Positions 1-47,773 are shown, counted from the first letter of the stretch. The stretch is 47,773 bases of DNA from a virus (IMGVR_UViG_2667527975_000009:1-47773); one strand, 5' to 3'. Notes: generated by a model not told the origin, from the sequence alone. Numbers and translations are program-made.

Positions 1-1158
1 ATGCTCACTGTTAAGCAGATTGAAGCAGCAAAGCCGAAAGAAAAACCATACCGCCTTCTCGATGGTAATGGCCTGTACCTTTATGTCCCTGTATCCGGGA
101 AAAAGGTATGGCAGCTTCGCTACAAGATTGACGGTAAGGAGAAAATCCTGACCGTAGGAAAATATCCGCTAATGACTTTGCAGGAGGCAAGGGATAAGGC
201 ATGGACTGCGAGGAAAGACATCTCGGTTGGCATCGATCCGGTAAAGGCGAAAAAGGCTTCGTCTAACAACAATTCCTTTAGTGCGATTTACAAGGAATGG
301 TACGAGCACAAGAAGCAAGTCTGGTCAGTAGGCTATGCAACTGAACTTGCCAAAATGTTTGATGACGACATTTTACCCATCATCGGCGGTCTTGAGATTC
401 AGGATATTGAGCCGATGCAACTGCTGGAAGTAATCCGCAGATTTGAAGATCGCGGCGCAATGGAGCGAGCCAACAAAGCACGCAGAAGATGCGGCGAGGT
501 TTTCCGTTACGCTATTGTCACTGGTAGGGCTAAATATAACCCGGCACCTGACCTTGCTGACGCCATGAAGGGATACCGCAAGAAGAACTTCCCGTTTCTC
601 CCAGCAGACCAGATCCCTGCATTCAACAAAGCACTGGCAACATTTTCAGGAAGCATCATATCGCTCATTGCGACCAAAGTTTTACGCTACACAGCCCTAA
701 GAACGAAAGAGCTTCGTTCTATGCTATGGAATAACGTCGATTTTGAAAACAGGATTATCACTATCGACGCCAGTGTGATGAAGGGACGCAAGATTCATGT
801 GGTCCCGATGTCGGACCAGGTGGTTGAACTTCTCACTACGTTAAGCTCCATCACCAAACCAGTATCAGAGTTTGTTTTTGCCGGGCGTAACGATAAGAAG
901 AAGCCAATCTGCGAGAACGCGGTATTACTTGTGATCAAACGAATCGGCTATGAGGGTCTGGAAAGCGGTCACGGATTCAGGCATGAATTCAGCACGATTA
1001 TGAACGAGCACGAATGGCCTGCTGACGCTATTGAAGTGCAACTGGCACATGCCAACGGCGGATCTGTGCGCGGAATTTACAACCATGCTCAGTATCTCGA
1101 TAAGCGCAGAGAAATGATGCAGTGGTGGGCGGACTGGTTAGATGATAAGGTGGAGTGA
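1..1158 (+). CDS. int: Tyrosine integrase, P4/IntS type
   Basis: 385-aa ORF whose ATG is the first base of the window. N-terminal KPKEKPYRLLDGNGLYL motif and C-terminal HGFRH...RGIYNHAQY catalytic box are typical of P4-family integrases. Confidence 0.9.
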   Translation: MLTVKQIEAAKPKEKPYRLLDGNGLYLYVPVSGKKVWQLRYKIDGKEKILTVGKYPLMTLQEARDKAWTARKDISVGIDPVKAKKASSNNNSFSAIYKEWYEHKKQVWSVGYATELAKMFDDDILPIIGGLEIQDIEPMQLLEVIRRFEDRGAMERANKARRRCGEVFRYAIVTGRAKYNPAPDLADAMKGYRKKNFPFLPADQIPAFNKALATFSGSIISLIATKVLRYTALRTKELRSMLWNNVDFENRIITIDASVMKGRKIHVVPMSDQVVELLTTLSSITKPVSEFVFAGRNDKKKPICENAVLLVIKRIGYEGLESGHGFRHEFSTIMNEHEWPADAIEVQLAHANGGSVRGIYNHAQYLDKRREMMQWWADWLDDKVE

Positions 1159-1184
1159 ACCATCTTAAAAATCAATGAAAACAT

Positions 1185-1216
1185 GCAAGGCCTGGCACTC
1201 AAGTTACAGGCCTTGC
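1185..1216. terminator. Hairpin between convergent int and tailspike genes
   Basis: 10-bp inverted repeat GCAAGGCCTG / CAGGCCTTGC with a 12-nt loop; a short U-run follows on the minus-strand side. Confidence 0.45.
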
Positions 1217-1266
1217 GCATACAATTTATCAACTAATAATTTAATTTTTTAAAATATCAATTAATT

Positions 1267-3441
1267 CTATCTAATCCTGAACATTACAATTGGAGCAGAG
1301 CCAGAAGATAAAGGGCCTGACCAATGGTATCTAATTCTGAAAGAAGACTCACTTGGAGTTCCGATAATTTCTATTGGACTTAAAGTTGCACCTTCTGCAG
1401 AACCAGCAGGTTGTCTAAACCCCAACACAGCAATCTGGTTTGGTGTTGGGGCATACAGAAAATTATGCTCAATATCAACCTCGTTAGATTCGCTACCTGT
1501 TGGGTTTGGCATATTCCACTCAATATAATCGTCAGTTGATTTCCCATTTATTGAGTTTCCAACTGTTGCCATAATCGTCCACGTACACGTCCTGTTAAGG
1601 GCTGCCATTCTATCACCTAAAAACCTATTATAACCATTTGCGCCTGAAGTGATTAATCTTATATTCTCTGATGCACATGTGCCAATGCTGTTAAATCCAG
1701 TGCAATCAGAAGAAAGCCCCTTCGCAGTTATATCTACGCTGTTCGCAAAACAAATTGTTGTTGAATTTACTGCATCGCGAATAAGAGCAGAACCCGAAAA
1801 CAAATTATCACACGAACCTCTTATATTATTACCACCGCCGGATAAGTAACATAAATTTCCTTTTATCCTCTTGGATGTAAAAGTAACATTGTTATTGTCA
1901 CCAGTAACAGAAAGAAGCGAGGCTTTAATAGGGGCATTGTCACTCTGTAACTGACCAATTTGGTTTATTGTAACTACATTGTTGTTGCCTGATATAGCTA
2001 TCTGATACCCATCATCATCAATTGAAGGTGAATATCTTTGTGCTTTTATATTGATGTTAAGTGTCCAGATTGTACCGTTATCCAGAAGCATGTCGCGGAG
2101 AGGAGAAATTGAATCGCCAGTGTAGTTATCTGGCATTCTTCCGCACGCCCTGGCTTCTGCGATGGCAACAACACCATGTGCCCCGTTGGTAAACCAGTAA
2201 CCACCTAAACTATTATCAACACACACATGCCTCGCATTGAATCGGTTAACACCCAGCGTCTTAAATCCATAGCCATAATACGCAGCATATACATGGATGT
2301 AATTTATATCGACATGTCCTGTATAAGGAGACTGATTATCAAGAACAATTCCATGACATGGTTCTCCGGGATAAAGAAGGCTTTGTTGGCTTGTTGCTGT
2401 TAATCTTGCGCTGTAAGGAGGAAGTCCACACAGGCCAAAAACAATATAATCCATGTTAATATCACCTGGCCCCCTGAACACAACCCCCTCTCTCCCTGAA
2501 ATTCTTCCCGTTATCCTCACTTCAGAGGCGTGTTCCTGATTATCATGAAATGATCCATACCCCTCTGAATAGAGAGCATGTTCTGCAACATTATTAATCT
2601 CAACGTCAATGTGGTACATGCTGCCGAATATTTTAATGGCAGTTCCATAGTCATTGTTAACAGTGTCGCAAGTTCTCCATGAGTTTGTATCTCTTTGCAA
2701 GTCAAGATAATTACCATCAATGGTCATATCTTTTATGCTAAATCCATATGGCGCATCAGACAGATTTTCCACAACGCCAAAGCCATGTGTTTTAAATACA
2801 TCTGTATTACTACCTTTTTTAACATACAGAAATGTTGCTCTCTTTCCAGAGCCTTTATGATGAACGCCTGTATAAAGAATGATAGGAGAATCTATTAAAT
2901 AAACACCTGGAGGGTAAAATATTTCCCCGCCACCATTATTAAAAGCAGCTAATGCTGCGGCATTAATGGCATCAGAATCTGATGTCAATCCATCTGCTTT
3001 AGCTCCATAGTATTGAGGTGTTTTCCTGATTGCATCGTAAACCGTTGAAGCGCCGAAACCGATATATTTACTACCATCTGTACCGCCAATAAGTAATTTA
3101 AACTGATCCGGGTCATACTTCAGCACATTCGGAAAATAGAACTGCTGTGTACCATACGCATCATAAACAGCCATAGAATGGCCTTGCACGGTTACGAATT
3201 TGGCAATCTGTCCGTTATATACCGGATATCCAGCAGCGTTAATGATTATTGGTTGCGAAACAGGAACGTGAGAACCGTCTTCATTCTCCACATAAACCTG
3301 AATCTGGTTTTCAGGATTTACTGGGTCAGTGTCAATTTTACCGATATAAATTTTGCCATTAGCTACGGCTTTAAAAGAGCGGGCCATAGTGAAGAGTTGC
3401 GAAGGCATGCTCACTACAACATTGGCTGTAATGTCTGTCAT
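1267..3441 (-). CDS. Tailspike (P22 gp9 / HK620-type head-binding domain with a divergent receptor-binding domain)
   Basis: 724 aa. The first ~115 aa ([46 protein letters not shown]...) match the conserved head-binding domain of P22-like tailspikes; the remainder is unrelated to the P22 or HK620 sequences I recall. The gene is visibly more AT-rich than its neighbours. Confidence 0.9.
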
Positions 3442-3499
3442 TTAATTTGCTCCAGATACAAGGAATGGCCGCAGTGATGCATTATTAACCAAAAAATAC

Positions 3500-3512
3500 G
3501 ACCACCGTGGTC
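3500..3512. promoter_or_regulatory. Mnt-operator-like palindrome
   Basis: GACCAC-C-GTGGTC, a 13-bp palindrome between the divergent mnt and tailspike starts; it resembles the P22 Omnt core as I recall it. Confidence 0.45.
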
Positions 3513-3576
3513 TTATTGAGGATGCAACCAGCAGATAATAAGATGCCGATCCACTCACAAGAGCGAGGCATCAAGA

Positions 3577-3828
3577 ATGGGAAGAGATGACCCGCAATTT
3601 AATCTGCGGCTACCTTACGAATTAAAGGAAAAACTAAAACAGCGAGCCAAATCCAATGGCCGCTCTCTTAATTCAGAATTAGTTCAGATAGTGACTGATG
3701 CTGTATCAAGGCCATCCAAAATTTCAGGCTATCGAGACGATGCGGAACGCATCGCTGATGAGCAATCAGAGCTTGTTAAGAAGATGGTGTTTGATACGCT
3801 GAAGGATTTGTACAAAAAACCCACCTGA
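3577..3828 (+). CDS. mnt: Mnt repressor (ribbon-helix-helix, Arc/MetJ family)
   Basis: 83 aa, MGRDDPQFNLRLPYELKEKLKQRAKSNGRSLNSELVQIV...DAERIADEQSELVKKMVFDTLKDLYKK; near-colinear with P22 Mnt. Confidence 0.85.
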   Translation: MGRDDPQFNLRLPYELKEKLKQRAKSNGRSLNSELVQIVTDAVSRPSKISGYRDDAERIADEQSELVKKMVFDTLKDLYKKPT

Positions 3829-3844
3829 AGGTGGGTCCTATTTA

Positions 3845-4264
3845 TTAGTCTTGCTTTGTTGATGGTATAAGTGATGCATTTGCCTCTTTTGGCTTCAAGG
3901 TATACATCCCACCATTAAATGGATCTACAGCAAGCCAACCAATTAACCCACCAAACACAAGGTTTCCACCAATATACCAACCATTAGCATTGGCTTTGAT
4001 TGGCAAGGTTACTGGCTCGTACCCATCCTTTTCCATAGTGATCTGATAGCTCTTTTTGCCAAAATAACTACCATCTGACTTGGCAAGAGTTACTCCTTGC
4101 GGGGTCTTACCTTGCGCAACAATCACGCCTGATTCGTCTTTTACCTTAAAGCTCGCACCGGAAGGATTGCTGTTCACTTGCACAAGCTGTGTTTCGTCAC
4201 CAACAATAGTTGCGCACCCAGATAACAATATAGCGCCAGCAACGACGCCGATAATCCTCTTCAT
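3845..4264 (-). CDS. Lipoprotein (moron; possible superinfection exclusion)
   Basis: 139 aa with an N-terminal signal peptide and lipobox (AILLSGC); sits between mnt and the ejection-protein genes. Confidence 0.6.
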   Translation of the reverse strand: MKRIIGVVAGAILLSGCATIVGDETQLVQVNSNPSGASFKVKDESGVIVAQGKTPQGVTLAKSDGSYFGKKSYQITMEKDGYEPVTLPIKANANGWYIGGNLVFGGLIGWLAVDPFNGGMYTLKPKEANASLIPSTKQD

Positions 4265-4398
4265 ATTACTTTCCGTTTTGTTAGAATCAGAAAGATCTTA
4301 ATAATAAAAAGTATTTTCGTGAAGATATTGTCGATTGAGTTAATAACTCATTTACACCCAACAGTGCCATGATGGCAAAGATAAGGAGAGTTAATCAT

Positions 4399-4884
4399 AT
4401 GAAAAAATCACTGTTAATTATCCCGCTTCTGCTGGCAGGGTGTGCAAAGGTTAGCGACTATCAGGCAAGTTGCGAACAACGCTATCCAAAGCTTAGCGAT
4501 ATGGCTAATTGCCTTGATGCTAGCGTGAAGAACGACTCACGCATGGCATCAGCACCAACACCTAAGTTATATGTCCTTGCTGCGAAGATGCTCGGGCAGG
4601 GTGTCGATGATGGCAAGATAAGTGACGCGCAGGCAAGACTTGAGCTTCAGAATCTTTATGTTCAATTACAAAGCCAAGAACAAGCCCAACAAATAGCGCA
4701 AAGCCAAGCATTCCAGCAGGCTTTATTGAATTATCAGGCTGTAAACACAATGCAAGCGATCGAGCAAAAAGCGAGACAGCCTGTTATAACTCAACCCTAT
4801 CCAACACGAGTTGACACTTACACAAACTGCAATTCAGGGTTTGGTAATACAGTCACATGCAACAGTAGCAGTAACATCAGATAA
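4399..4884 (+). CDS. Lipoprotein with Q-rich region (moron)
   Basis: Start taken at MKKSLLIIPLLLAGC (lipobox), with AAGGAG about 9 nt upstream; Q-rich central segment; opposite strand to the structural genes. Confidence 0.6.
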   Translation: MKKSLLIIPLLLAGCAKVSDYQASCEQRYPKLSDMANCLDASVKNDSRMASAPTPKLYVLAAKMLGQGVDDGKISDAQARLELQNLYVQLQSQEQAQQIAQSQAFQQALLNYQAVNTMQAIEQKARQPVITQPYPTRVDTYTNCNSGFGNTVTCNSSSNIR

Positions 4885-4974
4885 CAATCAGCAAAGGTAT
4901 CGCCTATGCAGAGGGATACGATAAACCTCGCGTTCTACATATTTGGTTTTTGCACGTTCCTGGTGTTTGCGAAG

Positions 4975-6972
4975 CTATTCTGACAGCGCATCAGACTTAG
5001 CACCCTGAGTCAGGGCGTTAATGACCTTTTGTGCCTGCTGCATGGCTTTCTCAAACGCTGTTGATCCGCGTGGGGTGTTTGCCATTCGGAGCATTGCATT
5101 CCTGAATGGCTCGCTCTCATAGGCGCGAGTAAGAAGTCCGTAGCTTACTGCTGCACCAGTTGTCGCCGGGTTCATTGCCGTCCCATACCCAATAATGAAC
5201 GGGATGGTTTGCTGCCCTGTGGGTGTTGTTACTGCCGCTTTTGCAGCCTGCTGCGTGGATTGCAGGTAGTTTTTCAATCCTTTCAGATAAGCGGCTTCCT
5301 GACCTTTAAATGTGATGCCAGTCTGGTTTTGCAGGATGTTAAGCTGTCGAAGGAACTGGTCAGGGGATCCGCCAGATTTCTCCATCGCCTTTCCAATGAT
5401 GCCATTGCGCATTTGCGCCCTGCCAACACGACCAACTGAGTTATACAGCGTCTTAATTTCCGATTTGTTCTTGCTGAATAGCATGTTGTTGACAACTTCC
5501 GGCGTCAGGTCGCCTTTCATGAGAACATTCTTCAGCCTGGTATTCTTTAGTTTCGCCGCTTCGTCAGCGTAGACGGCATTGGCCTGCTGATATTTACGGA
5601 GAGTATCGTTGCCAAGATTCTGACCAATGGCACCATTGATATCGTCAGTCATTGCCTTGTAAACGCGCTGAATAGCAGCATCGGAACGGTTTGGTAACAC
5701 TGGTCGCTCACCCTTCACGTCCATTCTGAACTGGCTGCGCAGGTCGCTTAATTGCTTCAAATCCAGATTTACCGGACCATCAGGGCCAGCATTGCGAACA
5801 AGCTCATCACGATATGACTGAAGTTTTGAAATTGTCTCGTTATCAGCTACCTTACCAAGCTTCTGCAGATTAGATATCTCAGTATCAATCTGCTGAATTG
5901 CTCGCGCAGGCTGGATATTGACTCCCGCCATTGCATTCTGAACCTGCTCAAGACGGTTCCCTGCGGCACGACGAATTCCTGATGTTTTCGCTTTAAGGCT
6001 GTCAATAACAACCGCTGGATCATACTCACCGAATTTATCGGCAAATCTCTGCACCAACTGGCTTCTCGCTTCCTGTTGCGTTGCTCTCATTCCGCTTGTG
6101 CCAGCCAGAGGGATATTTTCTGCTGTAGTCTGCGCCATTTTTCCGACGCGGGAAGTGGGTTGTAACAGGTCTGTGGTGTGCAGAGGAACTCCTTCACGCT
6201 CTGCAAATCTGATAGCCTGCTGCGCTTCTGGCGCAATAGCACCACTAACGCCACGATAAGCAGCACCTAATCCACGTCCAGCAGCGTTAATAGCGCCGCC
6301 TGCCAGAACGCCAACACCTAAATCGGTGGCGAGGGCTTCCGCATCATCTTTCGCACTATTTGCAGCAAGTGACCCGACTGCGTTTTCAGCGAGAAGGCGA
6401 GTTGCACCCTGAGCGATTCTACCAGCTAGTGTTGGTGCCTGTGCCGCCGCTCTCTCAACGCCAGCAGGAGTGAGGTAAGGCAATGCTTCAGCAAATACCC
6501 TTCCCTCTGTCGTTTGTGGAGTCAGCGCGCCTTGCTGAAGGCCAAAGTCCTGCTCTAATCCCTGCGTTGTTACTCGTGGCGCTGGTTGATATGTACCATC
6601 GCCAATGCCGAGTTTACCGCCAGCCCAAGCCGCCGCGCTTGTTACAGCATCGGCAACTGATGCGGGTATGTTTGCCACGTTCACGCCAGCCTGCACCAGT
6701 CCGCGACCAGTCTCTTTTACTGCTTCGCCAAGATCAGACATAAATCCACTTTGCTGTGGTTGTTGCTGTGCTACTGGTTGCTGTGTCTCCACTTGCTGCG
6801 CAGATGGCAATGGATAGGCAGCATAGAAAGCTTGCTTGGCCTGCTCTGCATTTTCTCCGGCTTGCGGGGCAACGACTTCATTGAAGTATTGCTCCTGAGC
6901 CTGCGCTTTTTGTTCTGGTGCTAACGCCTGATACTGTGGAGAGGCGATAACATCTTTCCATGCTTTAGCCAT
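4975..6972 (-). CDS. Ejection (internal virion) protein, P22 gp16-like
   Basis: 665 aa, last gene in the gp7-gp20-gp16 order; Ala/Gly/Gln-rich composition. Confidence 0.75.
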   Translation of the reverse strand: MAKAWKDVIASPQYQALAPEQKAQAQEQYFNEVVAPQAGENAEQAKQAFYAAYPLPSAQQVETQQPVAQQQPQQSGFMSDLGEAVKETGRGLVQAGVNVANIPASVADAVTSAAAWAGGKLGIGDGTYQPAPRVTTQGLEQDFGLQQGALTPQTTEGRVFAEALPYLTPAGVERAAAQAPTLAGRIAQGATRLLAENAVGSLAANSAKDDAEALATDLGVGVLAGGAINAAGRGLGAAYRGVSGAIAPEAQQAIRFAEREGVPLHTTDLLQPTSRVGKMAQTTAENIPLAGTSGMRATQQEARSQLVQRFADKFGEYDPAVVIDSLKAKTSGIRRAAGNRLEQVQNAMAGVNIQPARAIQQIDTEISNLQKLGKVADNETISKLQSYRDELVRNAGPDGPVNLDLKQLSDLRSQFRMDVKGERPVLPNRSDAAIQRVYKAMTDDINGAIGQNLGNDTLRKYQQANAVYADEAAKLKNTRLKNVLMKGDLTPEVVNNMLFSKNKSEIKTLYNSVGRVGRAQMRNGIIGKAMEKSGGSPDQFLRQLNILQNQTGITFKGQEAAYLKGLKNYLQSTQQAAKAAVTTPTGQQTIPFIIGYGTAMNPATTGAAVSYGLLTRAYESEPFRNAMLRMANTPRGSTAFEKAMQQAQKVINALTQGAKSDALSE

Positions 6973-8267
6973 TAATCACCCCATAGTGAAGAAAAGTTAC
7001 TGCCAGTAGTAGATTGTTGCCCTGGCATATTCTGCACCGGCTCCTGATAATCAAACTGTTTTTTAACAGTGCTCAACTTGCTTTCAAGCTGATTTCTAAT
7101 CTTTCCGATAGAGTCACGAAAAGCCTTTTCACTCATTTTGGGACTTAGGGCACCAACCGCATCGGATAATTTTTTACCCTCAGCATCTGAAAGAGCGCCC
7201 ATACCCTTCAGGGACTGCACCATAGGAAGGAATGTTTGAGCTTTAAAGGTGTCGAGTCTTGCTTCAAAGTTAGCCGCATCAGATCCAGGAACTGTCGGAA
7301 ACGCTGAGCGAATGCCTACTGCTTTTGAAAGGCCGGGGCTTTGCTCTATCTCGTTGAGAGAATCAAGCGCAGTGCTGAACGTATCAACTGCACCCTGAGC
7401 GGCGGCCTGCCTGTCAGCGCGGGCTATGTCAGCCTTTTGCCTAACATCTGCCTGTTTCTGTTTTAGCTCTTCAAGCTTTAACTGATTGCTTTCTCTGGCT
7501 ATCTGTCTATCCAGAGCCTTCTCCTGTAATTCTGCTCTTTGTATTTCGCGGGAAAGAGCGGCATTCTGTGCGCTGATGTTCTGTCCACGTATCTGGATGT
7601 CCTGACCACGCGCTGTTAGTGCTTCTCCAGCCTGATTGCTGCGGATTGTCTCTGCCAGTCTGCCTCGGTCAATCTCACGACCAGCCATCTTGTCCTGAAC
7701 ATTGAAGTAGTCAATCGGACCGAGAGCAGCCATCCCAAGGTGATCAACAAACTCACCAAATCCTGAAGGGTTCTGCTGATACATCTGAGCAACGCTGTTA
7801 GGGTCAACACCGACGCGAGTCAGTTCCTTGGCGTTGTTTTGCAGCCATGATTGCATTGCTTCTGGAGACGATGACGCAAGGCGGGCGCCAGCCGCTAAGG
7901 TTCCGATAGAATTGCGCTGGTCTTCATCAATGAATCCCATGCCTTTACGAACGGATTCAATCTGGTCTGGATATTGAGTAGCCAACTGACGCAAAGCACC
8001 GCGATCACCAGACGCATAAGCATTAGCGTATGCCTGCTGAAATTCTTTCTGCCGCTGAGCCTGCTTTTCCTGCTGAAACACCCCCGCAATACCTGAAAGG
8101 CCTTGCAAAGCAGTCAGCCCAACATTGTTAGCGCCTGAACGCTCAATATCATTGTTCTGCCTAATAAGTTGAAGCGTATTGCCGATGTCATTTACGCTCG
8201 GAGCGTTTGAGTTGACGCCGCCGATACCAGCCAACAATCCGCCATTTGATCCTTGCCAAGTAGCCAT
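6972..8267 (-). CDS. Ejection protein, P22 gp20-like
   Basis: 431 aa, synteny between the gp7-like and gp16-like genes; coiled-coil-rich. Confidence 0.75.
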   Translation of the reverse strand: MATWQGSNGGLLAGIGGVNSNAPSVNDIGNTLQLIRQNNDIERSGANNVGLTALQGLSGIAGVFQQEKQAQRQKEFQQAYANAYASGDRGALRQLATQYPDQIESVRKGMGFIDEDQRNSIGTLAAGARLASSSPEAMQSWLQNNAKELTRVGVDPNSVAQMYQQNPSGFGEFVDHLGMAALGPIDYFNVQDKMAGREIDRGRLAETIRSNQAGEALTARGQDIQIRGQNISAQNAALSREIQRAELQEKALDRQIARESNQLKLEELKQKQADVRQKADIARADRQAAAQGAVDTFSTALDSLNEIEQSPGLSKAVGIRSAFPTVPGSDAANFEARLDTFKAQTFLPMVQSLKGMGALSDAEGKKLSDAVGALSPKMSEKAFRDSIGKIRNQLESKLSTVKKQFDYQEPVQNMPGQQSTTGSNFSSLWGD

Positions 8268-8276
8268 GATTACCCC

Positions 8277-8969
8277 TTAAAACAACGAGCCAAGCAATCC
8301 GATACCAGCACCAATGCCAGCGCCCCAAGGTGTTGATGTTTCCAAAAGGCTGGCAAGACCTGCACCGGCAATCGCACCGGACGTTCCGCCGCTAATTGCT
8401 GTCTGAAGACTTGATGGTTTGTTAGCATTAGCAGCGGCAAGAGCTGCGCTTTGCTGTGCAATGCTGCTCATGTTGTTGGCGTACGTCTGCCCGGCGTTTG
8501 CCTGACCTTGCAGAGCACCAAGGCCAATGTTTGCCAGATTGTTGTAGTTGCTCATCTGGTTCGACAACCACGACTGACCGAGAGTCGGGGCAATCGTGGC
8601 CAGTTGATTGCTTGTGGCTGTCGAGCCAAGTCCACCCGTCGCCTCCGCAGCAGCAAGACTCTGGTAACGCGCCTGACCTGCAAGGTCTTTATACTGCTGA
8701 GAGTTGTAATACTGATTAAGTGCCTGCCCCTGTCCTTCTAAACTGGAAAGATTCTGAAGCTGGTTAACATACTGCTCCGCAAGCGGCGTGAACGGAGCAA
8801 GGTTTTTCATGATCGTCTGCCACTGTTGATTTTGCAGGTCTGCGGCATACTTCTGAGCTTCTGCGGCATACTTTGCACTTTTATCAGAACTGCCACCTTT
8901 CCCGCCTTTTTCAGGGCAATAAGGTTCCTCGCCGCGCAGTTTTCTGCCCAGCTTAAATGCATATAACAT
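8277..8969 (-). CDS. Ejection protein, P22 gp7-like
   Basis: 230 aa; synteny, with a Gly/Ala-rich C-terminus. Confidence 0.7.
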   Translation of the reverse strand: MLYAFKLGRKLRGEEPYCPEKGGKGGSSDKSAKYAAEAQKYAADLQNQQWQTIMKNLAPFTPLAEQYVNQLQNLSSLEGQGQALNQYYNSQQYKDLAGQARYQSLAAAEATGGLGSTATSNQLATIAPTLGQSWLSNQMSNYNNLANIGLGALQGQANAGQTYANNMSSIAQQSAALAAANANKPSSLQTAISGGTSGAIAGAGLASLLETSTPWGAGIGAGIGLLGSLF

Positions 8970-8971
8970 GG

Positions 8972-9430
8972 CTATCTCCCGTGATTCAGGAAGTCGATTA
9001 GTTCTTCGCGTGTGGCGCTGTAAAACGTCACGTCATCAACGCCTTTGAAGTATTTCTTGATGGTTCCTACACGCTTAAGGCCAATCATTGCGCAGTACAT
9101 CTGACCGTGGCGGAATTTGCGTGCAGCGAACGATGTGACGCACTGAACAGTGGTGTTAGTCAGAATGTATCGCCAGAACGCCAGCCCGATTTCCTTGCTG
9201 AAGCCACGAACCTCTGGCAGGTACATGGCGTGGCAATCGAATGTCAGCGGCTGAATCTCCTGATAGTAAACAATGCCGCCAAACTGACCGTGCACGTTAA
9301 CCTCAAAGTAACGGCATTCAGGCTTGTAGTCGTATCCATCACCGTTGTTGCTCCCGGCAATAATGTCAGGGTGATTTCCGACTGCTTCGATCAGGTCGAT
9401 GTTTCGCGTTGGTTTGAACTGAATCATCAC
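8972..9430 (-). CDS. Virion protein, P22 gp14-like
   Basis: 152 aa between the needle and gp7-like genes (synteny only). Confidence 0.55.
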
Positions 9431-10380
9431 TGCTCCGCGATTATCTTGATGGTTGTGGCAGTAAACGCCGCCCCATTTGACTGGATGGTTAACGCACTGC
9501 CATTTGTGGCAAGAAAGCCGTCTTTATCCACGCTGAAGAACGTAGCTAACAGGATGTTATCGGTTGTTGTCGCCGAGTTGCGACTGCTTACCAGTGTGTC
9601 AGGAACAGAGCTGGAAAAGGTTAGCTGCATTGACCTGTTTGCGGTTCCGCTGGGCCACGTCCCGACGATCGACAGCTTGAAGAACAAGGTTTTGTTCTCG
9701 TTGAACACAACCATCTTGTTGTTAACGGTGTCGAAGAATGGTGCCAACGTGCCGGATGACGGCGTGAGCGTTTTCAGCAGGCTAACAAGGTTGGTCGGCG
9801 CTGTCGGGATGGTTACCGATACTCCTGAGTAAACAACCTCTGATTTCTTGCGCGTGGTGGCATACTCAAGCGCAGATATTCTTGTTGAGTGATCACCAAC
9901 TGTGTTTTGTAGTGTCGGAATACTTCCCTCTGCCGCTGTGAGCCTGGTATCAAGTGCGTCGATATCGGTTGTATTCTGAGTTATTCGCGCATCATGGTTT
10001 GCTAACTCAGATTCATTGGCAGCAATTCGCGTCTCGTGATCAGCCAGCTCTGTTTCGGCAGCCGTAATCCTTGTTTCATGATCTGCAAGAGTGCTTTCCG
10101 CTGCTGCAATTCTATGTTCATGATTGATGAGAGTTGCTTCAGCAGCTTCAATTCTGGATTCATGGTCTGCAAGGGTGACATCCTGCTCATCATTCTTCAC
10201 CTGTGCATCATAAGCCCCCTTCCCTGCTTCGTTGGCCTTGTTAGCCACGTTACCAACATCAGTGCCCTGTGCGATAACGTAAAGCAGATACGACTGCGAG
10301 AAGATATTGCGTGGAAGAACTGATGTATCGAGCCGCGTAGCCTGGATGATTACTGGCTCATTGAGATTCGAATCAGCCAT
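9427..10380 (-). CDS. Tail needle (P22 gp26-like) with extended C-terminal knob
   Basis: N-terminus [43 protein letters not shown]... matches P22 gp26; central 14-residue coiled-coil repeats ([14 protein letters not shown] and variants); 317 aa versus 233 aa for P22 gp26. Confidence 0.85.
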
Positions 10381-35036: not shown

Positions 35037-35046
35037 GGAATTAACA

Positions 35047-35797: not shown

Positions 35798-35798
35798 C

Positions 35799-37085: not shown

Positions 37086-37127
37086 GACGTAACCAATATT
37101 CGAATTGAAGAACTGAAAGAACACCAA

Positions 37128-37150
37128 GCCGCCTGATGGCGGTTTTTTAT
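37128..37150 (+). terminator. Intrinsic terminator at the end of the early-left operon
   Basis: GCCGCC-TGAT-GGCGGT followed by TTTTTTAT. Confidence 0.8.
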
Positions 37151-37158
37151 TGCCTGAT

Positions 37159-37174
37159 TTGCAGGTTCGATTCC
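37159..37174 (+). other. tRNA T-arm-like motif (candidate att core / junction of the two elements)
   Basis: TTGCAGGTTCGATTCC contains the canonical GGTTCGAnTCC T-loop motif, but the flanks do not fold into a tRNA; it lies between the prophage terminator and the alpA-int module. Confidence 0.5.
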
Positions 37175-37193
37175 CTATTCGGAGATAGCACTC

Positions 37194-37394
37194 ATGCAAC
37201 ACGAACTACAGCCTGATTCACTGGTTGATTTGAAATTCATCATGGCCGATACTGGCTTCGGTAAAACCTTCATCTATGACCGGATTAAGTCCGGCGACCT
37301 GCCAAAAGCCAAAGTTATCCACGGGCGAGCAAGATGGTTATATCGTGACCATTGTGAATTCAAAAATAAGCTCTTAAGCCGCGCCAATGGGTAA
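37194..37394 (+). CDS. AlpA/Vis-like excisionase or regulator (MerR-like HTH)
   Basis: 66 aa; the pattern ...IMADTGFGKTFIYDRIKSGDLPKAKVIHGRARWLYRDHCEF... fits AlpA-family proteins. Confidence 0.7.
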   Translation: MQHELQPDSLVDLKFIMADTGFGKTFIYDRIKSGDLPKAKVIHGRARWLYRDHCEFKNKLLSRANG

Positions 37395-37642
37395 AATAGC
37401 GGGTAAAACATTTCTCACATCTAAAAAATACCATTCCAATCAATCCCCTGCCGCTTCAAGTAGATGTCTGCAGGGGACACCATGAACACTTCTCACTAAG
37501 TTCAATTAATTCCATAACTCACTGTTTTAACTGATATCATCTCCTTATACTCGTCCAGCAAAGTACCATTATTTCTAATGGAATCTATACATCTTTGCGT
37601 ATAACATTGTGTATAACTGAGTTCGATCTTTTTTCTATACAC

Positions 37643-38818
37643 ATGCTGCTATCTGACATCCAAATAAAAAGAGCAAAACCGAAGGACAAACCCTATACGC
37701 TTAACGATGGTATGGGGCTATCACTCCTGATCGACACAGCGGGCAGTAAAGGCTGGCGTTTTCGCTATCGCTTTGCAGGTAAGCCTAAGATGATTTCCTT
37801 TGGCGTATATGGCGATGTGTCGTTGGCACAGGCACGTACCAAACGTGATGAAGCGCGTTCGATGTTAGCCAACGGGATAAACCCAAGTGAAGCCAGAAAA
37901 GCAGATAAGATTGCTTTGCAGTTCGCGCATGAGAACAGCTTTGAGTCTGTGGCCAGAGAATGGCACTCATCGAAAAAAGCCACCTGGTCAGAGGGTTATG
38001 CAAAAGAGGTTCTCAATTGTATGGAAAAGGATATTTTTCCTTTTATCGGCCAGCGCCCAATTGAGCAGATTGAACCATTAGAACTGCTAACCGTCCTGCA
38101 AAAAATAGAGAAAAGAGGTGCGCTAGAGCAAACCAGTAAGATCCGCCGCCGCTGTGGTGAAGTGCTTCGTTATGCTGTTGCCACTGGTAGAGCAAAGTAT
38201 AATTTTGCACCCGATTTAGCTATCGCACTCAACAAACCTAAAACCCAACACTTCCCGTTCCTGACTGAAAGCGAGTTGCCCGAGTTCGTTAATGCTCTGG
38301 ATAACTATCAGGGCAGTTTAGTTACCAAATACGCCACGCAGCTGTTGATGCTAACAGGCGTGCGAACAATTGAACTACGTGCAGCGGAATGGGCTGAGTT
38401 TGATTTAGATAATGCCTTATGGGAGATCCCCAAAGAACGGATGAAGAAACGCCGCCCCCATCTGGTTCCGTTATCAACTCAGGCGATCAATATCCTGAAA
38501 AAGCTGCAAGAAATAACAGGGAATTACAGCCTCGTTTTCCCTGGCCGGAATGACGTCAGTAAACCAATGAGCGAAGCCAGCATCAACAAAGTGATAAAAC
38601 TACTGGGTTATCACGGTCGGTTAACGGGTCACGGTTTCAGGCATACCATGAGCACCATCTTGCATGAGCATGGGTTTGAAAGTGCCTGGATTGAAATGCA
38701 GCTTGCGCATGTTGATAAGAACTCTATTCGAGGTACTTACAATCATGCGCAATATATTAAAGATCGACAAGTAATGATGGAATGGTACGCTAGCTTATTA
38801 AATACGACCTGCTATTAA
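37643..38818 (+). CDS. int: Tyrosine integrase, P4 type (second integrase)
   Basis: Start taken at the internal Met (MLLSDIQIKRAKPKDKPYTLNDGMGL...); homologous to but clearly distinct from the integrase at 1..1158. Confidence 0.9.
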   Translation: MLLSDIQIKRAKPKDKPYTLNDGMGLSLLIDTAGSKGWRFRYRFAGKPKMISFGVYGDVSLAQARTKRDEARSMLANGINPSEARKADKIALQFAHENSFESVAREWHSSKKATWSEGYAKEVLNCMEKDIFPFIGQRPIEQIEPLELLTVLQKIEKRGALEQTSKIRRRCGEVLRYAVATGRAKYNFAPDLAIALNKPKTQHFPFLTESELPEFVNALDNYQGSLVTKYATQLLMLTGVRTIELRAAEWAEFDLDNALWEIPKERMKKRRPHLVPLSTQAINILKKLQEITGNYSLVFPGRNDVSKPMSEASINKVIKLLGYHGRLTGHGFRHTMSTILHEHGFESAWIEMQLAHVDKNSIRGTYNHAQYIKDRQVMMEWYASLLNTTCY

Positions 38819-39748
38819 ATCCAGCATGAAACAAATATGGTGAGTAATTTGATACTGTTTGTTTTTTGGCAACCCAGGGAAATGCCTTACAGTTGGTTGA
38901 CTATTGTAATAATAATAGTTAAGACCAATGTTGCTGCCAAACTGGGTTGGATGTTGGGGAACAAGATTTGTAATTTGATCTGAAACATCTAAAAATTTTG
39001 CAGTAACATTTGAACTTCCTCGTTGCGTGTTGCTTGATACAAAATGACGAATCCAAACTGTATTCGCTTGTAAATTCTTGAACACCAAATGTGCGGCAAC
39101 AGCAGAAGGTTGACCACCTCCAAGATCTAGTACCTGGCCAGTAATTGTATAATCGCCAAATCCTAAGTAATTTTGTCCCACGAATTGATGTGCGTGCGTG
39201 AAAAGTTCCGGCCCATTATAATCAGCATTTTTTGCTAACTTTCTAAAGTTATCGCTAATAATAATTAACTTCGACAAAGGAAGAAGAGCGCACTGATTAG
39301 GAAGCATTTTATTATTTAAAACAACATGATAACTAATCAATTGATTTGTCGCCAACAACTGAATATCAGAGTTGGATAATGATGGATTATCATATAGAAG
39401 TGCAACTCGTCTATTTAAGTTAGCATTCAACCAATTATTAATATCATTAATCGTTGTATTGGGCTGAATAAGATATCCAGAGATGATATTATTTTTATTT
39501 GTTAATACACTTGATAAATTTTGATTTAAAGTTAAGACGTTATTGTGTGAAGAAAAATCTTCCTGATAAGGATTAAGGATAACAATTATGTCAGAATTCC
39601 AAACATTTAAACATGTTAATAAATTTCTCGTATTGACGTTAATTGGTTCTAAAATTGGTAGCAGACCATTTAGGCTAACTCCCTTCGCAACGAGGTCCCT
39701 AAGGCATAATAACTCTGTACTTCTCGCATACAAATATGGGCTATACAT
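38798..39748 (-). CDS. Cargo protein B (unknown function; AT-rich accessory gene)
   Basis: 316 aa, Asn/Leu/Ser-rich, low GC; second gene of a two-gene operon, and its 3' end overlaps the 3' end of int by 21 bp. Confidence 0.7.
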   Translation of the reverse strand: MYSPYLYARSTELLCLRDLVAKGVSLNGLLPILEPINVNTRNLLTCLNVWNSDIIVILNPYQEDFSSHNNVLTLNQNLSSVLTNKNNIISGYLIQPNTTINDINNWLNANLNRRVALLYDNPSLSNSDIQLLATNQLISYHVVLNNKMLPNQCALLPLSKLIIISDNFRKLAKNADYNGPELFTHAHQFVGQNYLGFGDYTITGQVLDLGGGQPSAVAAHLVFKNLQANTVWIRHFVSSNTQRGSSNVTAKFLDVSDQITNLVPQHPTQFGSNIGLNYYYYNSQPTVRHFPGLPKNKQYQITHHICFMLDLIAGRI

Positions 39749-39769
39749 AACTTACAACTCCTGAGGATA

Positions 39770-40651
39770 TCAACAAATTTTAATTTTTACATCCATCAAA
39801 TTCATGATGAATTCTTTTTGCTTTCTTGATAATGGTGTTGCATAACCTAAAACACGTAAACATGCTGGAAGAGAATAAATATAATCCAAAAAAACTTTAT
39901 CGTTACATCTTTTTTTCATAGCAGAGATAAAGTATTTATTTGCTATGTTTAATGGCATCTGCATGAATATCTCTTTACAATATTCATAAACCAATCCGTT
40001 AGGCATATTTATTTTAGTTGAAGTGTAATCTTCTATTATAGCTAAGAACTCTTCCTTTCTAAGAACTGAAAACAAGCTGTCACTTTTAATATAATCAATA
40101 TTTGAATCTGCCTCCTTAATGACACTCAATTGATCTTTTTTATTCAAAACCATAACTCCCACTCTGGGGAGATTTAAAGCACAATATTTACTTGCATACT
40201 CTGGATGTGTAACTATATACACTTTATCAAAAACATCCAAATAATCAGGGGCTTGAGTAATCAACCTTTTTGGTGAATCATACTCTGTCTTAATCTCGTA
40301 AGCTGTAGACGTACCATTAAACACCGCAACATCCACTATAGAGTTTTTAATTGGTAACTCTATGGACGACGAACTTGTTTTTGGGCTGTGCTTACCGAAT
40401 ATTATTTTATTGACAAGTGCTGTCTTATAAACATATTCATTTCTATAATTCAGACGCAAAAAATCATATAATGATGTAAATAAATCCCTTAGTGAAATCT
40501 CATGTTCATTATTATCATTGTTTGAAAACAGTGTTTCATAGCAGTAAGAATCAAAACTCCCAAATAAATCCGAAATATCCTTACCTTTTGCTAAGGATGA
40601 AAAAATGGGGCGACGGAAAAATTTAGCATATTCCTTTTTATTATGACTCAT
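39770..40651 (-). CDS. Cargo protein A (unknown function; possible PD-(D/E)xK nuclease-like motif)
   Basis: 293 aa, AT-rich; contains ...SIVDVAVFNGTSTAYEIKTEYD..., which resembles a D...E-x-K nuclease core. Confidence 0.7.
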   Translation of the reverse strand: MSHNKKEYAKFFRRPIFSSLAKGKDISDLFGSFDSYCYETLFSNNDNNEHEISLRDLFTSLYDFLRLNYRNEYVYKTALVNKIIFGKHSPKTSSSSIELPIKNSIVDVAVFNGTSTAYEIKTEYDSPKRLITQAPDYLDVFDKVYIVTHPEYASKYCALNLPRVGVMVLNKKDQLSVIKEADSNIDYIKSDSLFSVLRKEEFLAIIEDYTSTKINMPNGLVYEYCKEIFMQMPLNIANKYFISAMKKRCNDKVFLDYIYSLPACLRVLGYATPLSRKQKEFIMNLMDVKIKIC

Positions 40652-41332
40652 TACTCATACTCTATAAACATCATGCAATTTGATAAGTTATGACGAATTC
40701 TCACCATCCAGTTACTACCTGTATACATACTAATCAAAAAAAACGAGTACGCAAGATACGAAAGTACTTTTCTTGTTCACCAGTTAGCTTACCTTGATCC
40801 TCACCAGCGACTGGAAGATAGGTAGCAGTATATGTGGAAACCTTCCCCTAGCTAGGTCTACAAACGTAGTTTGGGCATTTAGGCTCCACGATTCACGGTT
40901 TGACACGGCCTGATATCTGCACATTCGTTTTGATATGCAGCAATCGTGAAAAAGGAAAATATACGCTCGACAGACCAAAACGGCACTACACCGCACCCGC
41001 CTGCGGTTTTCATATCACTAAAAATTTTCAGCCTGGATTTTTTACAAACGATACCGCCAGTCCGTGCCAGTCCTCGAGATGTACTGCGATACAGGAACTG
41101 AAAAGAATGAAAAGAAATTCATTTTTTTTCAGTTTTACTGTCCGTCGAATCTATGGCCTGAATACGCAACTCTATGATATTAAATGGATAATTAATTTTA
41201 GGTGTGTGATTTTATGAAGGTTTGTGAAACATGAAGAAGATAACCAGTTGAAAAATAATAATTTTATGACCGTATAAACTGAAATCCTGTGTTCAGGTTC
41301 CGGGAACAGATCGGCCATTCCCGACGCATACT

Positions 41333-41679: not shown

Positions 41680-41862
41680 CTGGTAACACGTGTAACGCTA
41701 TTGATTTAAAAGGATTTAATCTGTTACCAGTTAGCAAAATCAAGAGGTAACGCGTGGTAACACACCATTTTTTGTTACCTCTGTTACCAGTCAGTATTTT
41801 TGACTGGTAACACTGAAGAACCGCATCAGTAACGGGTGTTACCTCTGTTACCAGTGTTACCT
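41680..41862. repeat. Iteron array (TGTTACC / GGTAACA, at least 10 copies in both orientations); putative satellite ori
   Basis: Visible directly, for example CTGTTACCAG four times, GGTAACAC and GTGTTACCTC, immediately downstream of the primase gene. Confidence 0.65.
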
Positions 41863-44982: not shown

Positions 44983-45211
44983 CGCGCATCACTCCCTTAA
45001 TTGTGCTGGTTTCCTTAACAACGCCATCCAGTTGTTCGGCAATACAGGCCACTAAAGCCGCAGCGCCTTCCGCTGAAACAGTTCTCGCTCCATTCACTGT
45101 GGGCACGGACAAGACCTCTGCAAGAAACTCACTGGCCAGTGCCGCCCGTAACAGACGACTCTCCCCCTGTTCACTCAATATGCAGCCTTGCTTAAAATTC
45201 ATGGATTTCAT
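44975..45211 (-). CDS. Hypothetical protein (primase operon)
   Basis: 78-aa ORF, coupled. Confidence 0.5.
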   Translation of the reverse strand: MKSMNFKQGCILSEQGESRLLRAALASEFLAEVLSVPTVNGARTVSAEGAAALVACIAEQLDGVVKETSTIKGVMRDE

Positions 45212-45411
45212 GCAACCACCTCCCCGGCTCTTTTCACAGGGATACGGGCAGCAAAGCTCAGGATAAATTCAGTGGCAAGTTTAAGGCGTGCAGCATGCTC
45301 GCATTCTGCGATTACACGCACAGGGCGTGGACGGGCATCACGGTCTGTACGGCGGACAGCCAGAAAGACAAAGGTAAATTCAGGGTGAGATAAAGCAGGG
45401 ACTGTAGCCAT
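45208..45411 (-). CDS. Hypothetical protein (first gene of the primase operon)
   Basis: About 67 aa from MATVPALSHPEF with GAAGGAGG 8 nt upstream; the longer 196-aa ORF upstream is low-complexity. Confidence 0.45.
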   Translation of the reverse strand: MATVPALSHPEFTFVFLAVRRTDRDARPRPVRVIAECEHAARLKLATEFILSFAARIPVKRAGEVVA

Positions 45412-45630
45412 AATGGCAACCTCCTTCAGATAGCGGGTAACGCTACCACCGGAGTTCCTACGCTCATGGGTGGTAGCCCAGACGGGGGTAGGAATACCGG
45501 CTCTGAAGGATACCGGCCAGCCCGAAAGCTGCCCCGCCTGGACTACCATAATTCTGATGATGTGGCGTAAAAAATAAAAAAATACAATCAGCCACCACAC
45601 CATAAATTTTAGGTGAGTCAAAGCTGCGAC

Positions 45631-45655
45631 ACAAAAAAACACGCCTAGCGCGTGT
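45631..45655 (-). terminator. Intrinsic terminator or attenuator in the leader upstream of the primase operon
   Basis: On the minus strand, ACACGC-GCTAG-GCGTGT followed by UUUUUU. Confidence 0.6.
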
Positions 45656-45848
45656 AGTATCGCCTTCAGATAACACGGGTTCCTACGCCCGGCTGCCGAT
45701 TTTGCGGCAACCTTTAAACTATATCCCGCGCATTCCTGGTGAGGCAAGAAATTTATAACCGAAAACTGATCATTGCCTGGATTAATTAACGCTGGCATGC
45801 TTAAGCCTCTGCTTAAAAATAGTTCTTCATTTTTCCTGATGCTGTAAA

Positions 45849-45875: not shown

Positions 45876-45885
45876 TGTCGCTAAG

Positions 45886-46890
45886 TCAATCCGCAAACGT
45901 CAGGGTGCACTCATCAACAGCCGCGTACAGTTCAGGTTCACCGAGTGCATAACCTTCATTGCGCAGGTAGGAATGCACGTATTCACTGCTTTCATCATCA
46001 AACTCAGCACGAAACCAGCGTGTTATCGCCTGAGTGTAAATATGCAGATTATCCAGCGTCGTTACTGCCAGACGCTTACCCGGCATAAACGGGGGAATAA
46101 ACGCAAAGCGGCCAGCAACAGAACTTGTAGCCATCTGTGCCGCATTCACATCAGACGGGCGGTCTGCGGCATTAAATAACTTCAGGCGTTGATGTGCTGC
46201 CAGCTCTGCCCCAACCAGTACAACCAGACGAGGATCTTCACGAAACTGCTCAGCAATAAGCTCTGTAATCAGATGGTTGGCCAGAGCATCAATATTTTTC
46301 CAGGTGCCAGTCTCTCCCAGAGTGACAGGCTCAGAGATGATTTGCTTTCCGTTCCCGTAGGCTTTCGCCAGTGCATGCCAGCCAATATTGACATCCTCGC
46401 CTTTTTTATTGATTTCCGGGTTTGTAGTATTTGCAATCGACACACCGTTGAAACCGACCCGCAGCATGTCCAGCGCATATGCCTGGGCAAAAAAGCTCTC
46501 AACCGTTTTCTCAAACTCATCCGGCACGCCGGTATGGTAAATATGAGACATATCGGAATAGCTGATCCGGGCGCAGGTATCCGTCTCTGTCAGAAAGAAC
46601 TCCGTACCATTGATTGCCATTTTTTTGTGGAAACGGCCACCATCCACACGTCCGGTATACAGTTCACTGGCACCAATATTGACGGCATTACCTGACACGG
46701 CGTTAACATCACGTAGGGTAATATTTTTAATAAGCCACCCGGATTCCAGAATTGAGGTACGCAGTATATTTTCAGTAGGTTCGCTTAATGCAAAGCGTCT
46801 GTTTGATTCTTCCTGATAGTTAGTGCCAGTGACGAATTTATTATGATAACGACGTGCTGCGTCCGGCCTTTCAGTTTTGAAGGCATACAT
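45886..46890 (-). CDS. Putative P2-family major-capsid-like protein (uncertain)
   Basis: 334 aa; the segments GFNGV..., EDPRLVVLVGAELAA and TLDNLHIYT resemble P2 GpN as I recall it. Not verified. Confidence 0.35.
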   Translation of the reverse strand: MYAFKTERPDAARRYHNKFVTGTNYQEESNRRFALSEPTENILRTSILESGWLIKNITLRDVNAVSGNAVNIGASELYTGRVDGGRFHKKMAINGTEFFLTETDTCARISYSDMSHIYHTGVPDEFEKTVESFFAQAYALDMLRVGFNGVSIANTTNPEINKKGEDVNIGWHALAKAYGNGKQIISEPVTLGETGTWKNIDALANHLITELIAEQFREDPRLVVLVGAELAAHQRLKLFNAADRPSDVNAAQMATSSVAGRFAFIPPFMPGKRLAVTTLDNLHIYTQAITRWFRAEFDDESSEYVHSYLRNEGYALGEPELYAAVDECTLTFAD

Positions 46891-46912
46891 AGTTTTTCAC
46901 CTTTTTAAGTAT

Positions 46913-47773
46913 TTAAGAAAAGATTTTATTTTTGTACTCAGTAACCAGATTGTATTTCATTACATGCTCAACATAATCCCGGTCACTTACGACTGAACGT
47001 AATACATAATTATCTGCTCGATAGTACTCCCTGTAAGCCATAGCTCTTGCCATTCCACCGTTATTTAATACATAACGATCAGTTGGAACGCTACAACGAC
47101 TAATAATTTCACTCACGGAATCAGATAAAGACTTGAGTGCATCAGTAATAAATTTAATATCACGGACAACGTCACTGTCATTAAATACAGAAATAAAATC
47201 AGCAGGGATCTGGCCGGATTGAGGAAATATATTCAGTAAACGCTTATCGATTCCCTTCCCAATGTAGTTTCCTTCATCGGCCAGTACTCCCGGCAAAAGC
47301 TTGATCGTGCTCAATCGACTATGTTGTTCATTCAACCGGGAAACAGCCAGATGGTAATACCGTTCAGCATCCGCTCGTTCAGCATGCCCCATTTTATTCG
47401 TTTTGGCTTCAGCAATGCTACTGACGCCGTTTTTTGAGAATGTGCTTTTCCATGCAACTTCCGCATTTGTCACTTCACGCTGCCGGAAAGATAACTCTTC
47501 CTCTTCCTGACGACACAACTGGGCATAACGGCTCAGGAGCAGGTTGATCTCATTCGCCACAGTTTCCGTATCAGGTACTGTTAACCCCGTAAGTGAATAC
47601 AGCTTTTCACCTTTAGCTCGCAGCTTATTCAGTGAATATATTTCAATAATACGCACAATACAGGCCGTGTCGCTATGAGTCTCTTTAAATGATCTTACTT
47701 TGTAACTATCTAACACCGACACATGTTCGTTCTTAATTGATGCCAATTTCTTCTTAAAAACATTGTCAACCAT
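46913..47773 (-). CDS. Hypothetical protein
   Basis: 286-aa ORF whose ATG sits at the window edge; coiled-coil-like central region. Confidence 0.5.
   Translation of the reverse strand: MVDNVFKKKLASIKNEHVSVLDSYKVRSFKETHSDTACIVRIIEIYSLNKLRAKGEKLYSLTGLTVPDTETVANEINLLLSRYAQLCRQEEEELSFRQREVTNAEVAWKSTFSKNGVSSIAEAKTNKMGHAERADAERYYHLAVSRLNEQHSRLSTIKLLPGVLADEGNYIGKGIDKRLLNIFPQSGQIPADFISVFNDSDVVRDIKFITDALKSLSDSVSEIISRCSVPTDRYVLNNGGMARAMAYREYYRADNYVLRSVVSDRDYVEHVMKYNLVTEYKNKIFS

Follow-up and report, generated by a model that had tools for sequence, protein, structure and literature searches.

In this study, we have explored a stretch of 47,773 nucleotides catalogued as viral (IMGVR_UViG_2667527975_000009:1-47773; "the window" below means the whole of it), which carries a phage satellite integrated beside a prophage. 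The source is an Escherichia coli chromosome: the two stretches that we compared, window positions 1-5000 and 37000-47773, are 100% identical to NZ_OZ039045.1, and strain CH4794 is also identical across the right 10.8 kb of the window. Two distinct mobile elements are present, a P22-type prophage at 1-37467 and a satellite-type element from 37468 to the window end. An earlier note on this DNA had described a P4-like satellite adjoining a P22/lambda-type prophage with lambda-type Q control and P22-type morphogenesis. The adjacency is confirmed by Pfam, Rfam and the annotation of both elements, and the character of the neighbour by Pfam matches to lambda-type Q (PF03589), the P22 portal (PF16510), the P22 coat (PF11651) and a head-binding tailspike (PF09008). 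The satellite measures 11,032 bp (11.0 kb) and is cut by the window, about 0.7 kb of it running past position 47773; this part holds an AlpA/Vis-like gene and the right attachment (att) copy, about 20-725 bp from the window end. All its genes are on the minus strand, the integrase excepted. Coordinates are collected in Table 1.

Two elements at one tRNA attachment site

The window opens with the start codon of intS; to its left, about 160 bp away, is the 3' end of argW, a tRNA-Arg gene. The 16-bp core CTGCAGGGGACACCAT, which is the 3' end of argW, occurs three times: in the tRNA gene, at window positions 37468-37483, where it separates the torI-like gene of the prophage from the satellite int, and 11,032 bp further right, before dsdC. 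Since the same core bounds both elements, they are integrated in tandem. The prophage has a KplE1-style IntS-TorI recombination module, as in the KplE1/Sf6/HK620 type at argW, with intS at the tRNA end and a torI-like excisionase gene at the far end; the satellite uses the same core and has its int and AlpA/Vis genes at opposite ends. The satellite integrase is 45% identical to the neighbouring IntS, and its AlpA/Vis-like factor is weakly like TorI (27% over 51 amino acids, aa).

Each element is also found by itself. In strain CAVp367 the prophage stands alone directly before dsdC, and in strain SA186 the order is tRNA-Arg, satellite, dsdC, with the satellite integrase directly after the tRNA gene. 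The satellite unit is exactly att-bounded and shows presence/absence polymorphism among genomes. Using a 701-nt probe spanning the junction on 5,426 complete E. coli genomes, we counted the tandem junction (torI end, core, satellite int) in 13 genomes, the satellite int directly at tRNA-Arg in about 425, and a torI-type prophage end without the satellite in about 1,400. The satellite is present in about 440 of these genomes (about 8%), and the tandem state is, if anything, rarer than independent assortment predicts. Because the two elements are found apart in nearly all genomes and the tandem is rare, their adjacency is incidental and comes from the shared tRNA attachment site. The paradox of a satellite beside the "wrong" prophage is thereby removed: the shared site suffices, and no new helper biology is needed.

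Backbone, packaging site and capsid of the satellite

To judge from its protein and RNA matches, the backbone of the satellite is P4-related. Its length of about 11 kb, its insertion in a tRNA gene and its integrase (40% identity) are shared with P4 and the P4-like family (Moura de Sousa & Rocha 2021, PMC8628076). The AlpA/Vis-like helix-turn-helix protein of 75 aa, just outside the window, is 46% identical to P4 ORF88/Vis, and its counterparts in sister satellites match PF05930 (Phage_AlpA). In the primase-helicase, similarity to P4 alpha (38% identity over 321 aa) is confined to the N-terminal 320 aa or so; the other 570 aa, approximately, which contain DUF927, do not match it. The 78-aa and 136-aa open reading frames (ORFs) before the primase gene correspond to the "75-aa protein plus cnr" pair typical of P4-like elements at this place (PMC8628076). 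The 136-aa ORF occupies the position of the P4 ORF106 (cnr) homologue; the window protein itself has no Pfam match, and counterparts of the same size and position in relatives match PF17345 (DUF5375), the P4 ORF106 family.

In the immunity region, a 196-aa "Ash" ORF matches PF10554 (Phage_ASH) and, on residues 141-188, NF033153, which is the Icd-like 3' coding part. The Ash/Icd region is 71% identical at the nucleotide level to P4 8285-8707, a match that covers the P4 cI/immunity region (8189-8728) and not the epsilon gene, for which the satellite has no match. The C4 antisense RNA and the isrK-like RNA, both above the Rfam gathering score, indicate that this ORF consists in part of RNA genes and that the immunity of the satellite is RNA-based, of the P4/P1 type. 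Immediately 3' of the primase gene, a cluster holds 9 of the 12 window copies of the GGTAACA iteron (4 are expected by chance over the whole window); it is conserved in four genera and is probably the satellite replication origin.

The "P4-like" label of the earlier note therefore holds in part. It is borne out by this backbone, but the satellite lacks sid, psu and the P2/P4 cos and has a capsid gene of its own. No sid was found in it; psu gave no tblastn match and a profile comparison probability of 0.3%; and the P2/P4 cos 19-mer GGCGAGGCGGGGAAAGCAC was not found in the satellite even when 5 mismatches were allowed. P4 has its activator in a sid-delta-psu operon; that of the satellite is a single-domain Ogr of 90 aa placed after the primase, and the satellite adds the capsid gene and a 286-aa protein.

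Its packaging signals point to another group of phages, the ESSI-2-like peduoviruses, which are distant relatives of P2 in the genera Seongnamvirus, Quadragintavirus and Tresduoquattuorvirus (Cronobacter ESSI-2; Escherichia ESSI2_ev015, ev040, ev129 and ev239; Yersinia vB_YenM_324; a Salmonella relative). A 680-bp non-coding stretch between sce7726 and ogr holds about 190 bp that align to the genome-end junctions of ESSI-2, ev015, ev040, YenM_324 and the Salmonella relative. The ESSI-2 record has an identical 15 nt, GCGGGTGCGGTGTAG, at its start and end, which would represent the filled-in cohesive end. In the window, CTACACCGCACCCGC at 40986-41000 is the exact reverse complement of this terminal redundancy, a 27-nt block from 40978 matches the uncut phage junction almost exactly, and AAACGGCACTACACCGCACCCGCCTGC, the sequence around 40986-41000, matches the uncut junction of the Yersinia and Salmonella phages. 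The 15-mer has a single copy in the window and none within the P22-like prophage, and such cos sequence is confined to the ESSI-2-like group (11 matches among 50,697 phage records). The ESSI2_ev015 and ESSI2_ev040 records break inside the cos stretch with sequencing-adapter remnants, which is consistent with assembly artefacts that mark the physical genome ends.

As a side observation, the adapter in these public records is Nextera, at or inside the cos region (NC_049395.1 1-47; NC_049393.1 ~29,550). We also considered the contigs of Salmonella "phage S.Kent 1-2-1" as a particle-derived satellite and rejected them: they are pieces of an ESSI-2-like phage and display its uncut cos junction.

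The late activator and the capsid lead to the same phages. The satellite Ogr, of the single-domain type, is 52-62% identical to ESSI-2-like Ogr-like proteins (52% to ESSI2_ev015), against 28% (39 aa aligned) for P2 Ogr and 21% for P4 delta. The full-length capsid homologue shows 48-52% identity with the capsids of ESSI-2-like phages but 23-27% with P2 gpN, and it is 73-84% identical to the capsids of sister satellites, which form their own group. Its gene and that of the 286-aa protein are enclosed by alpA on one side and the immunity region on the other. Homologues of the 286-aa protein fall into 105 clusters, of which almost all the named ones are from Enterobacteriaceae and none has a Pfam domain; its AlphaFold model (pLDDT, the per-residue confidence measure, 88.5) consists of helices only, and comparisons that included Sid, Psu and the helper scaffold gave no specific structural or profile relative. 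No terminase-like family (small terminase or Rpp-type) was detected in any satellite ORF with Pfam, PHROGs and NCBIfam, nor any head or packaging family other than the capsid homologue with Pfam and PHROGs. As the satellite is without other head genes, the portal, scaffold-protease, terminase and tail must come from a helper.

Against NCBIfam TIGR01551 (P2-family major capsid, equivalog) the satellite capsid scores 204.6 bits, just below the curated cut-off of 219.65; it is far above the Pfam threshold and bears the RefSeq name "P2 family phage major capsid protein", a name that could make the island look like a prophage remnant. The satellite has only two exact TGT-N12-ACA dyads, which were considered as Ogr sites and rejected: one overlaps an iteron (window 41662) and the other, past the window end, the -10 of the conserved alpA promoter. 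Chance alone would give about 2.7 such dyads in 11 kb, and the late promoters of P2 itself also miss the strict pattern, so that TGT-N12-ACA is unusable as evidence.

The same kit is conserved in sister satellites. Relatives are found in Klebsiella, Enterobacter, Salmonella, Citrobacter and Cronobacter. Across at least five genera the ORFs are all intact and keep one and the same order, with protein identities of 70-84%. In Enterobacter hormaechei, Klebsiella pneumoniae and Cronobacter sakazakii, where sizes agree within a few residues, the order is AlpA, the 286-aa protein, capsid, Ash, 79 aa, DUF5375, the 895-aa primase and the 90-aa Ogr, followed by a spacer of 565-820 bp, variable cargo and the integrase. 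The Enterobacter locus then extends into the chromosomal flank on the yfdC side; in Cronobacter the contig stops within the cargo, and the integrase and chromosomal flank lie beyond its end. In all three the spacer contains the exact 15-mer and a 26-nt invariant block. A scan of representative genomes with the 286-aa protein returned 3 Citrobacter loci only, and look-ups of exact homologues were more informative.

What varies is the cargo. In the window it is an sce7725/sce7726 pair; sce7726 is related to P4 cII (PADLOC "cll" match, E 1e-18; P4 cII is itself annotated as sce7726 family), so that this cargo too is shared with P4. The GC content of the cargo region (~39-41 kb) is 0.33-0.35, against about 50% in the rest of the satellite. 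The sisters carry a retron Ec48 reverse transcriptase with its effector, a DprA-like gene with a hydrolase, or DUF5343. P4-like satellites have a variable defence slot between cos and int (PMC9122126), and the slot described here repeats this design, with cos beside the cargo beside int.

Some minor observations concern the same regions. The satellite integrase and sce7725 genes are convergent, with a 21-bp overlap (38798-38818), and the cargo slots of the sisters lie, in the coordinates of their own loci, at 17085-19309, 17226-19446 and 16980-17615. At the other end, about 500 bp past the window end, a tandem (GGGCTG)x11 stands between the alpA-like gene and the right att (CH4794 locus 30290-30358); in its place, the relatives from Enterobacter and Klebsiella carry (CCAGCCT)n, a repeat of 7 nt.

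The helper and competing explanations

Three independent features, the cos, the Ogr-type activator and the capsid, match one phage group, which argues for an ESSI-2-like peduovirus as the helper, and most likely for an incoming one. Based on these results, we consider it probable that two independent elements stand in tandem in argW and that the kit which the satellite carries on its P4-type chassis is directed at ESSI-2-like peduoviruses. The earlier note had observed that the neighbour is not the kind of helper expected of a P4-like element, and had proposed either that the helper is elsewhere in the genome or that the helper relationship is different. Its observation agrees with our data, as does the second proposal, the relationship being unlike that of the classical P4-P2 pair because cos, activator and capsid match ESSI-2-like phages and not P22-like ones. 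The first finds no support: the search of the rest of the genome for a P2-like prophage, suggested in the same note, detected neither a P2-like nor an ESSI-2-like large terminase in the source chromosome. For this search, a window-specific stretch was joined to part of the ev015 terL (1.4 kb) or of P2 gene P (1.7 kb) and compared by sensitive blastn. NZ_OZ039045.1 was matched at one place only with both joined probes.

In the mechanism that we propose, the satellite would stay silent under its RNA immunity until an ESSI-2-like phage infects or is induced. It would then excise by means of Int and AlpA/Vis and replicate from its own origin, and its Ogr-like protein could cross-activate late genes. 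The satellite capsid protein, together with the 286-aa protein, would build or redirect small heads sized for 11 kb, and the helper terminase would cut and package the satellite at the shared cos. The P22-like neighbour would play no part. We infer the induction, the redirection of capsid size and the mobilisation by an ESSI-2-like phage; small heads made from the satellite's own capsid protein are suggested by analogy with SaPIbov5 (Ccm) and Pasteurella PmCI172, satellites in which capsid homologues make small capsids, the helper of PmCI172 being contractile-tailed (PMC6092414). The size of the satellite is 36-38% of ESSI-2-like genomes (28.8-30.6 kb), and the P4:P2 ratio is 35%.

Several observations weigh against this explanation. 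The packaging of the satellite is read from sequence, and the cohesive end from one GenBank terminal repeat and the adapter-marked ends of two other records rather than from a published mapping. No Ogr-responsive promoters were identified in the satellite. The 286-aa protein has no recognisable fold relative, which makes the capsid-redirection step a conjecture. In the NZ_OZ039045.1 chromosome, neither large terminase was detected at about 65-70% nucleotide identity or better; the ESSI-2-like terL is present in other E. coli at about 98% identity, but it is rare. A combined probe of capsid, 286-aa gene and terL matched 501 places in 492 genomes, so that at most 9 genomes have both the satellite and an ESSI-2-like terL; there is no enrichment of co-occurrence among the ~445 satellite-bearing E. 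coli genomes. Finally, 421 complete E. coli genomes, many of them labelled O25b:H4-ST131, share the satellite at 99% identity or more, which fits vertical inheritance of a possibly idle element. In E. coli, the satellite looks mostly vertically inherited, either awaiting an incoming helper or idle.

These last data would also suit an immobile relic or a domesticated island, kept for its cargo or for RNA/Icd functions, with capsid and cos as leftovers or with a capsid that poisons incoming ESSI-2-like phages. The near-clonal E. coli copies and the helper prophage that is almost never alongside agree with it, as do the defence-type genes in the cargo slot of relatives, such as retron Ec48, and the fact that satellites commonly interfere with their helpers (PMC6092414, PMC9122126). 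We nonetheless find it unlikely. The intact ORFs in the same order across genera and the invariant 26-nt cos block argue for purifying selection on the whole kit, cos included; the unit is exactly att-bounded and polymorphic in its presence; its size is kept near 11 kb despite turnover of the cargo; and interference and mobilisation are not mutually exclusive. An ordinary P4-like satellite served by a classical P2/186-type helper, resident elsewhere or arriving by infection, would account for the P4-type integrase, RNA immunity, AlpA/Vis, cnr-like gene, primase N-terminus, cII-like cargo and Ogr_Delta domain, and the capsid homologue does belong to the P2 family in Pfam. This is very unlikely in view of the missing P2/P4 cos, sid and psu, of identities to P2 proteins (Ogr ~28%, capsid 23-27%) that contrast with 48-62% to ESSI-2-like ones, and of the source chromosome, in which no P2-like terL was detected at about 65-70% nucleotide identity or better.

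We give hardly any credence to the neighbouring P22-like prophage as the helper, whether by PICI-like redirection of its headful terminase (PICI, phage-inducible chromosomal island) or by lateral transduction. Adjacency, the shared att core and the 45% identical integrases would speak for it, and so would the PICI-like layout of the satellite, with alpA, primase then origin, and a capsid homologue. Yet the satellite has no terS or Rpp-type gene, its capsid is of the P2 family and not of the P22 coat family, its cos is like that of another phage group and does not occur in the prophage, and the 13 tandem cases among ~440 satellites are fewer than independence predicts. Headful packaging by P22 starts at pac and crosses the late genes in the direction of the tailspike end. 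In the window this direction leads away from the satellite, so that lateral transduction from the prophage would be expected to miss it.

The combination of an ESSI-2-directed kit with a P4-type chassis can be compared with other capsid-encoding satellites. SaPIbov5 and PmCI172 resemble it in carrying a homologue of the helper capsid (Fillol-Salom 2018, PMC6092414), and SaPIbov5 also in cos-based packaging without its own terminase. The capsid-homologue PICIs further share alpA, a primase followed by the origin, and one-directional transcription; the satellite has these PICI features, int included, together with a capsid homologue of predicted function. It differs from them in its P4-related backbone (RNA immunity, Ogr/Delta, P4-type int and hotspot), and nothing in the sequences indicates kinship with those islands, although no direct comparison was made. 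The PICI definition excludes att sites of temperate prophages, whereas the argW core of the satellite is used by the P22-like prophage in the window. Capsid-forming PICIs (cfPICIs) such as EcCIEDL933 are similar in having their own capsid protein rather than only remodelling that of the helper. They encode head and packaging functions in full (portal, protease, connectors, terminase) and take nothing but tails (PMC10085698), unlike the satellite with its capsid gene and one 286-aa protein.

On this basis the satellite and its sisters could form a distinct P4-related lineage, in which Sid/Psu were swapped for a helper-derived capsid and a helical partner, and cos and Ogr were re-tuned to ESSI-2-like phages; we hold this as a tentative proposal, at slightly less than an even chance. 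Literature searches on this lineage, or on satellites with ESSI-2-like phages as helpers, brought up nothing specific, and screens of the SatelliteFinder type may have counted it as partial P4-like or type-B PICI. If true, the lineage would follow a strategy intermediate between P4, which remodels the helper capsid, and cfPICIs, which build their own head. Our data draw attention to a satellite lineage, conserved and widespread, whose P4 chassis bears a different capsid-hijacking kit, and suggest that the helper of a satellite can be read from its sequence alone when cos, late activator and capsid homologue point to one phage group. If the lineage is mobile, ESSI-2-like phages would carry defence cargo (sce7725/7726, retron Ec48 and others) between enterobacterial genera.

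The P22-type prophage and the features of the window

The prophage is a complete-looking element of the Sf6/IME10-like P22 type, which shares 95-96% of its nucleotides with phages IME10 and Sf6 where the sequences match, and the RefSeq annotation of its identical copy lists CI/Cro/CII, N and nin genes. Its features are given with those of the satellite in Table 1.

Table 1. Features of the two elements, in window coordinates
Feature	Position	Strand	Evidence or remark
Prophage intS-type tyrosine integrase	1..1158	+	Pfam Arm-DNA-bind_3, Phage_int_M, Phage_integrase; RefSeq "prophage integrase IntS" directly after tRNA-Arg in identical genomes
Prophage body	1267..37394	mostly -
Prophage tailspike	1267-3441	-
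Prophage coat	12563-13858	-
Prophage portal	14783-16951	-
Prophage large terminase	16951-18411	-
Prophage lysis genes	between large terminase and Q in listed order	-
Prophage Q antiterminator	22618-23241	-
Prophage nin region, then replication genes	after Q in listed order	-
Prophage cI/cro	near 30 kb	-
Prophage N and recombination genes	right of cI/cro	+
Prophage TorI-like excisionase	37194-37394	+
Middle copy of 16-bp argW core CTGCAGGGGACACCAT	37468..37483	+	prophage right end = satellite left end
Satellite tyrosine integrase, 391 aa	37643..38818	+	Pfam integrase domains; 40% identity to P4 Int over 405 aa
Variable cargo slot, here sce7725/sce7726 pair	38798..40651	-	NCBIfam NF033831, NF033832
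ESSI-2-type cos packaging site (putative)	40960..41135	-	alignment to phage genome-end junctions
Ogr/Delta-type zinc-finger late-gene activator, 90 aa	41333..41605	-	PF04606, E 5e-14
Iteron cluster GGTAACA/TGTTACC	41682..41861		immediately 3' of primase gene
Primase-helicase, 895 aa	41888..44575	-	primase zinc ribbon, Toprim, DUF927
Two small conserved ORFs, 136 aa and 78 aa	44572..45211	-	PHROG matches
P4/P1-type RNA immunity region	45208..45798	-	Rfam, PF10554, NF033153
C4 antisense RNA	45466-45553		Rfam RF01695, 81 bits, above gathering score
isrK-like RNA	45634-45711		Rfam RF01394, 69 bits, above gathering score
Full-length P2-family major capsid homologue, 334 aa	45886..46890	-	PF05125, E 1e-66, profile positions 16-326 of 327
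286-aa all-helical protein, no family	46913..47773	-	always directly upstream of capsid gene (synteny)

Just upstream of the torI-like gene, TGCAGGTTCGATTCCCT at window 37160-37176 resembles the T-arm of argW and may be a remnant of an older tRNA-targeted insertion. In strain CH4794, the P22-type prophage at the argW site is a different mosaic (CH4794 locus positions 8215-10383), in which an ISVsa5 insertion splits a replication gene and a gene for a BstA C-terminal domain stands beside the repressor. Since the neighbouring prophage differs in CH4794 while the satellite is identical, the neighbour is variable and sometimes defective, and the satellite constant. In the pandemic ST131 lineage, the satellite also seems to be a stable part of the argW-dsdC region.

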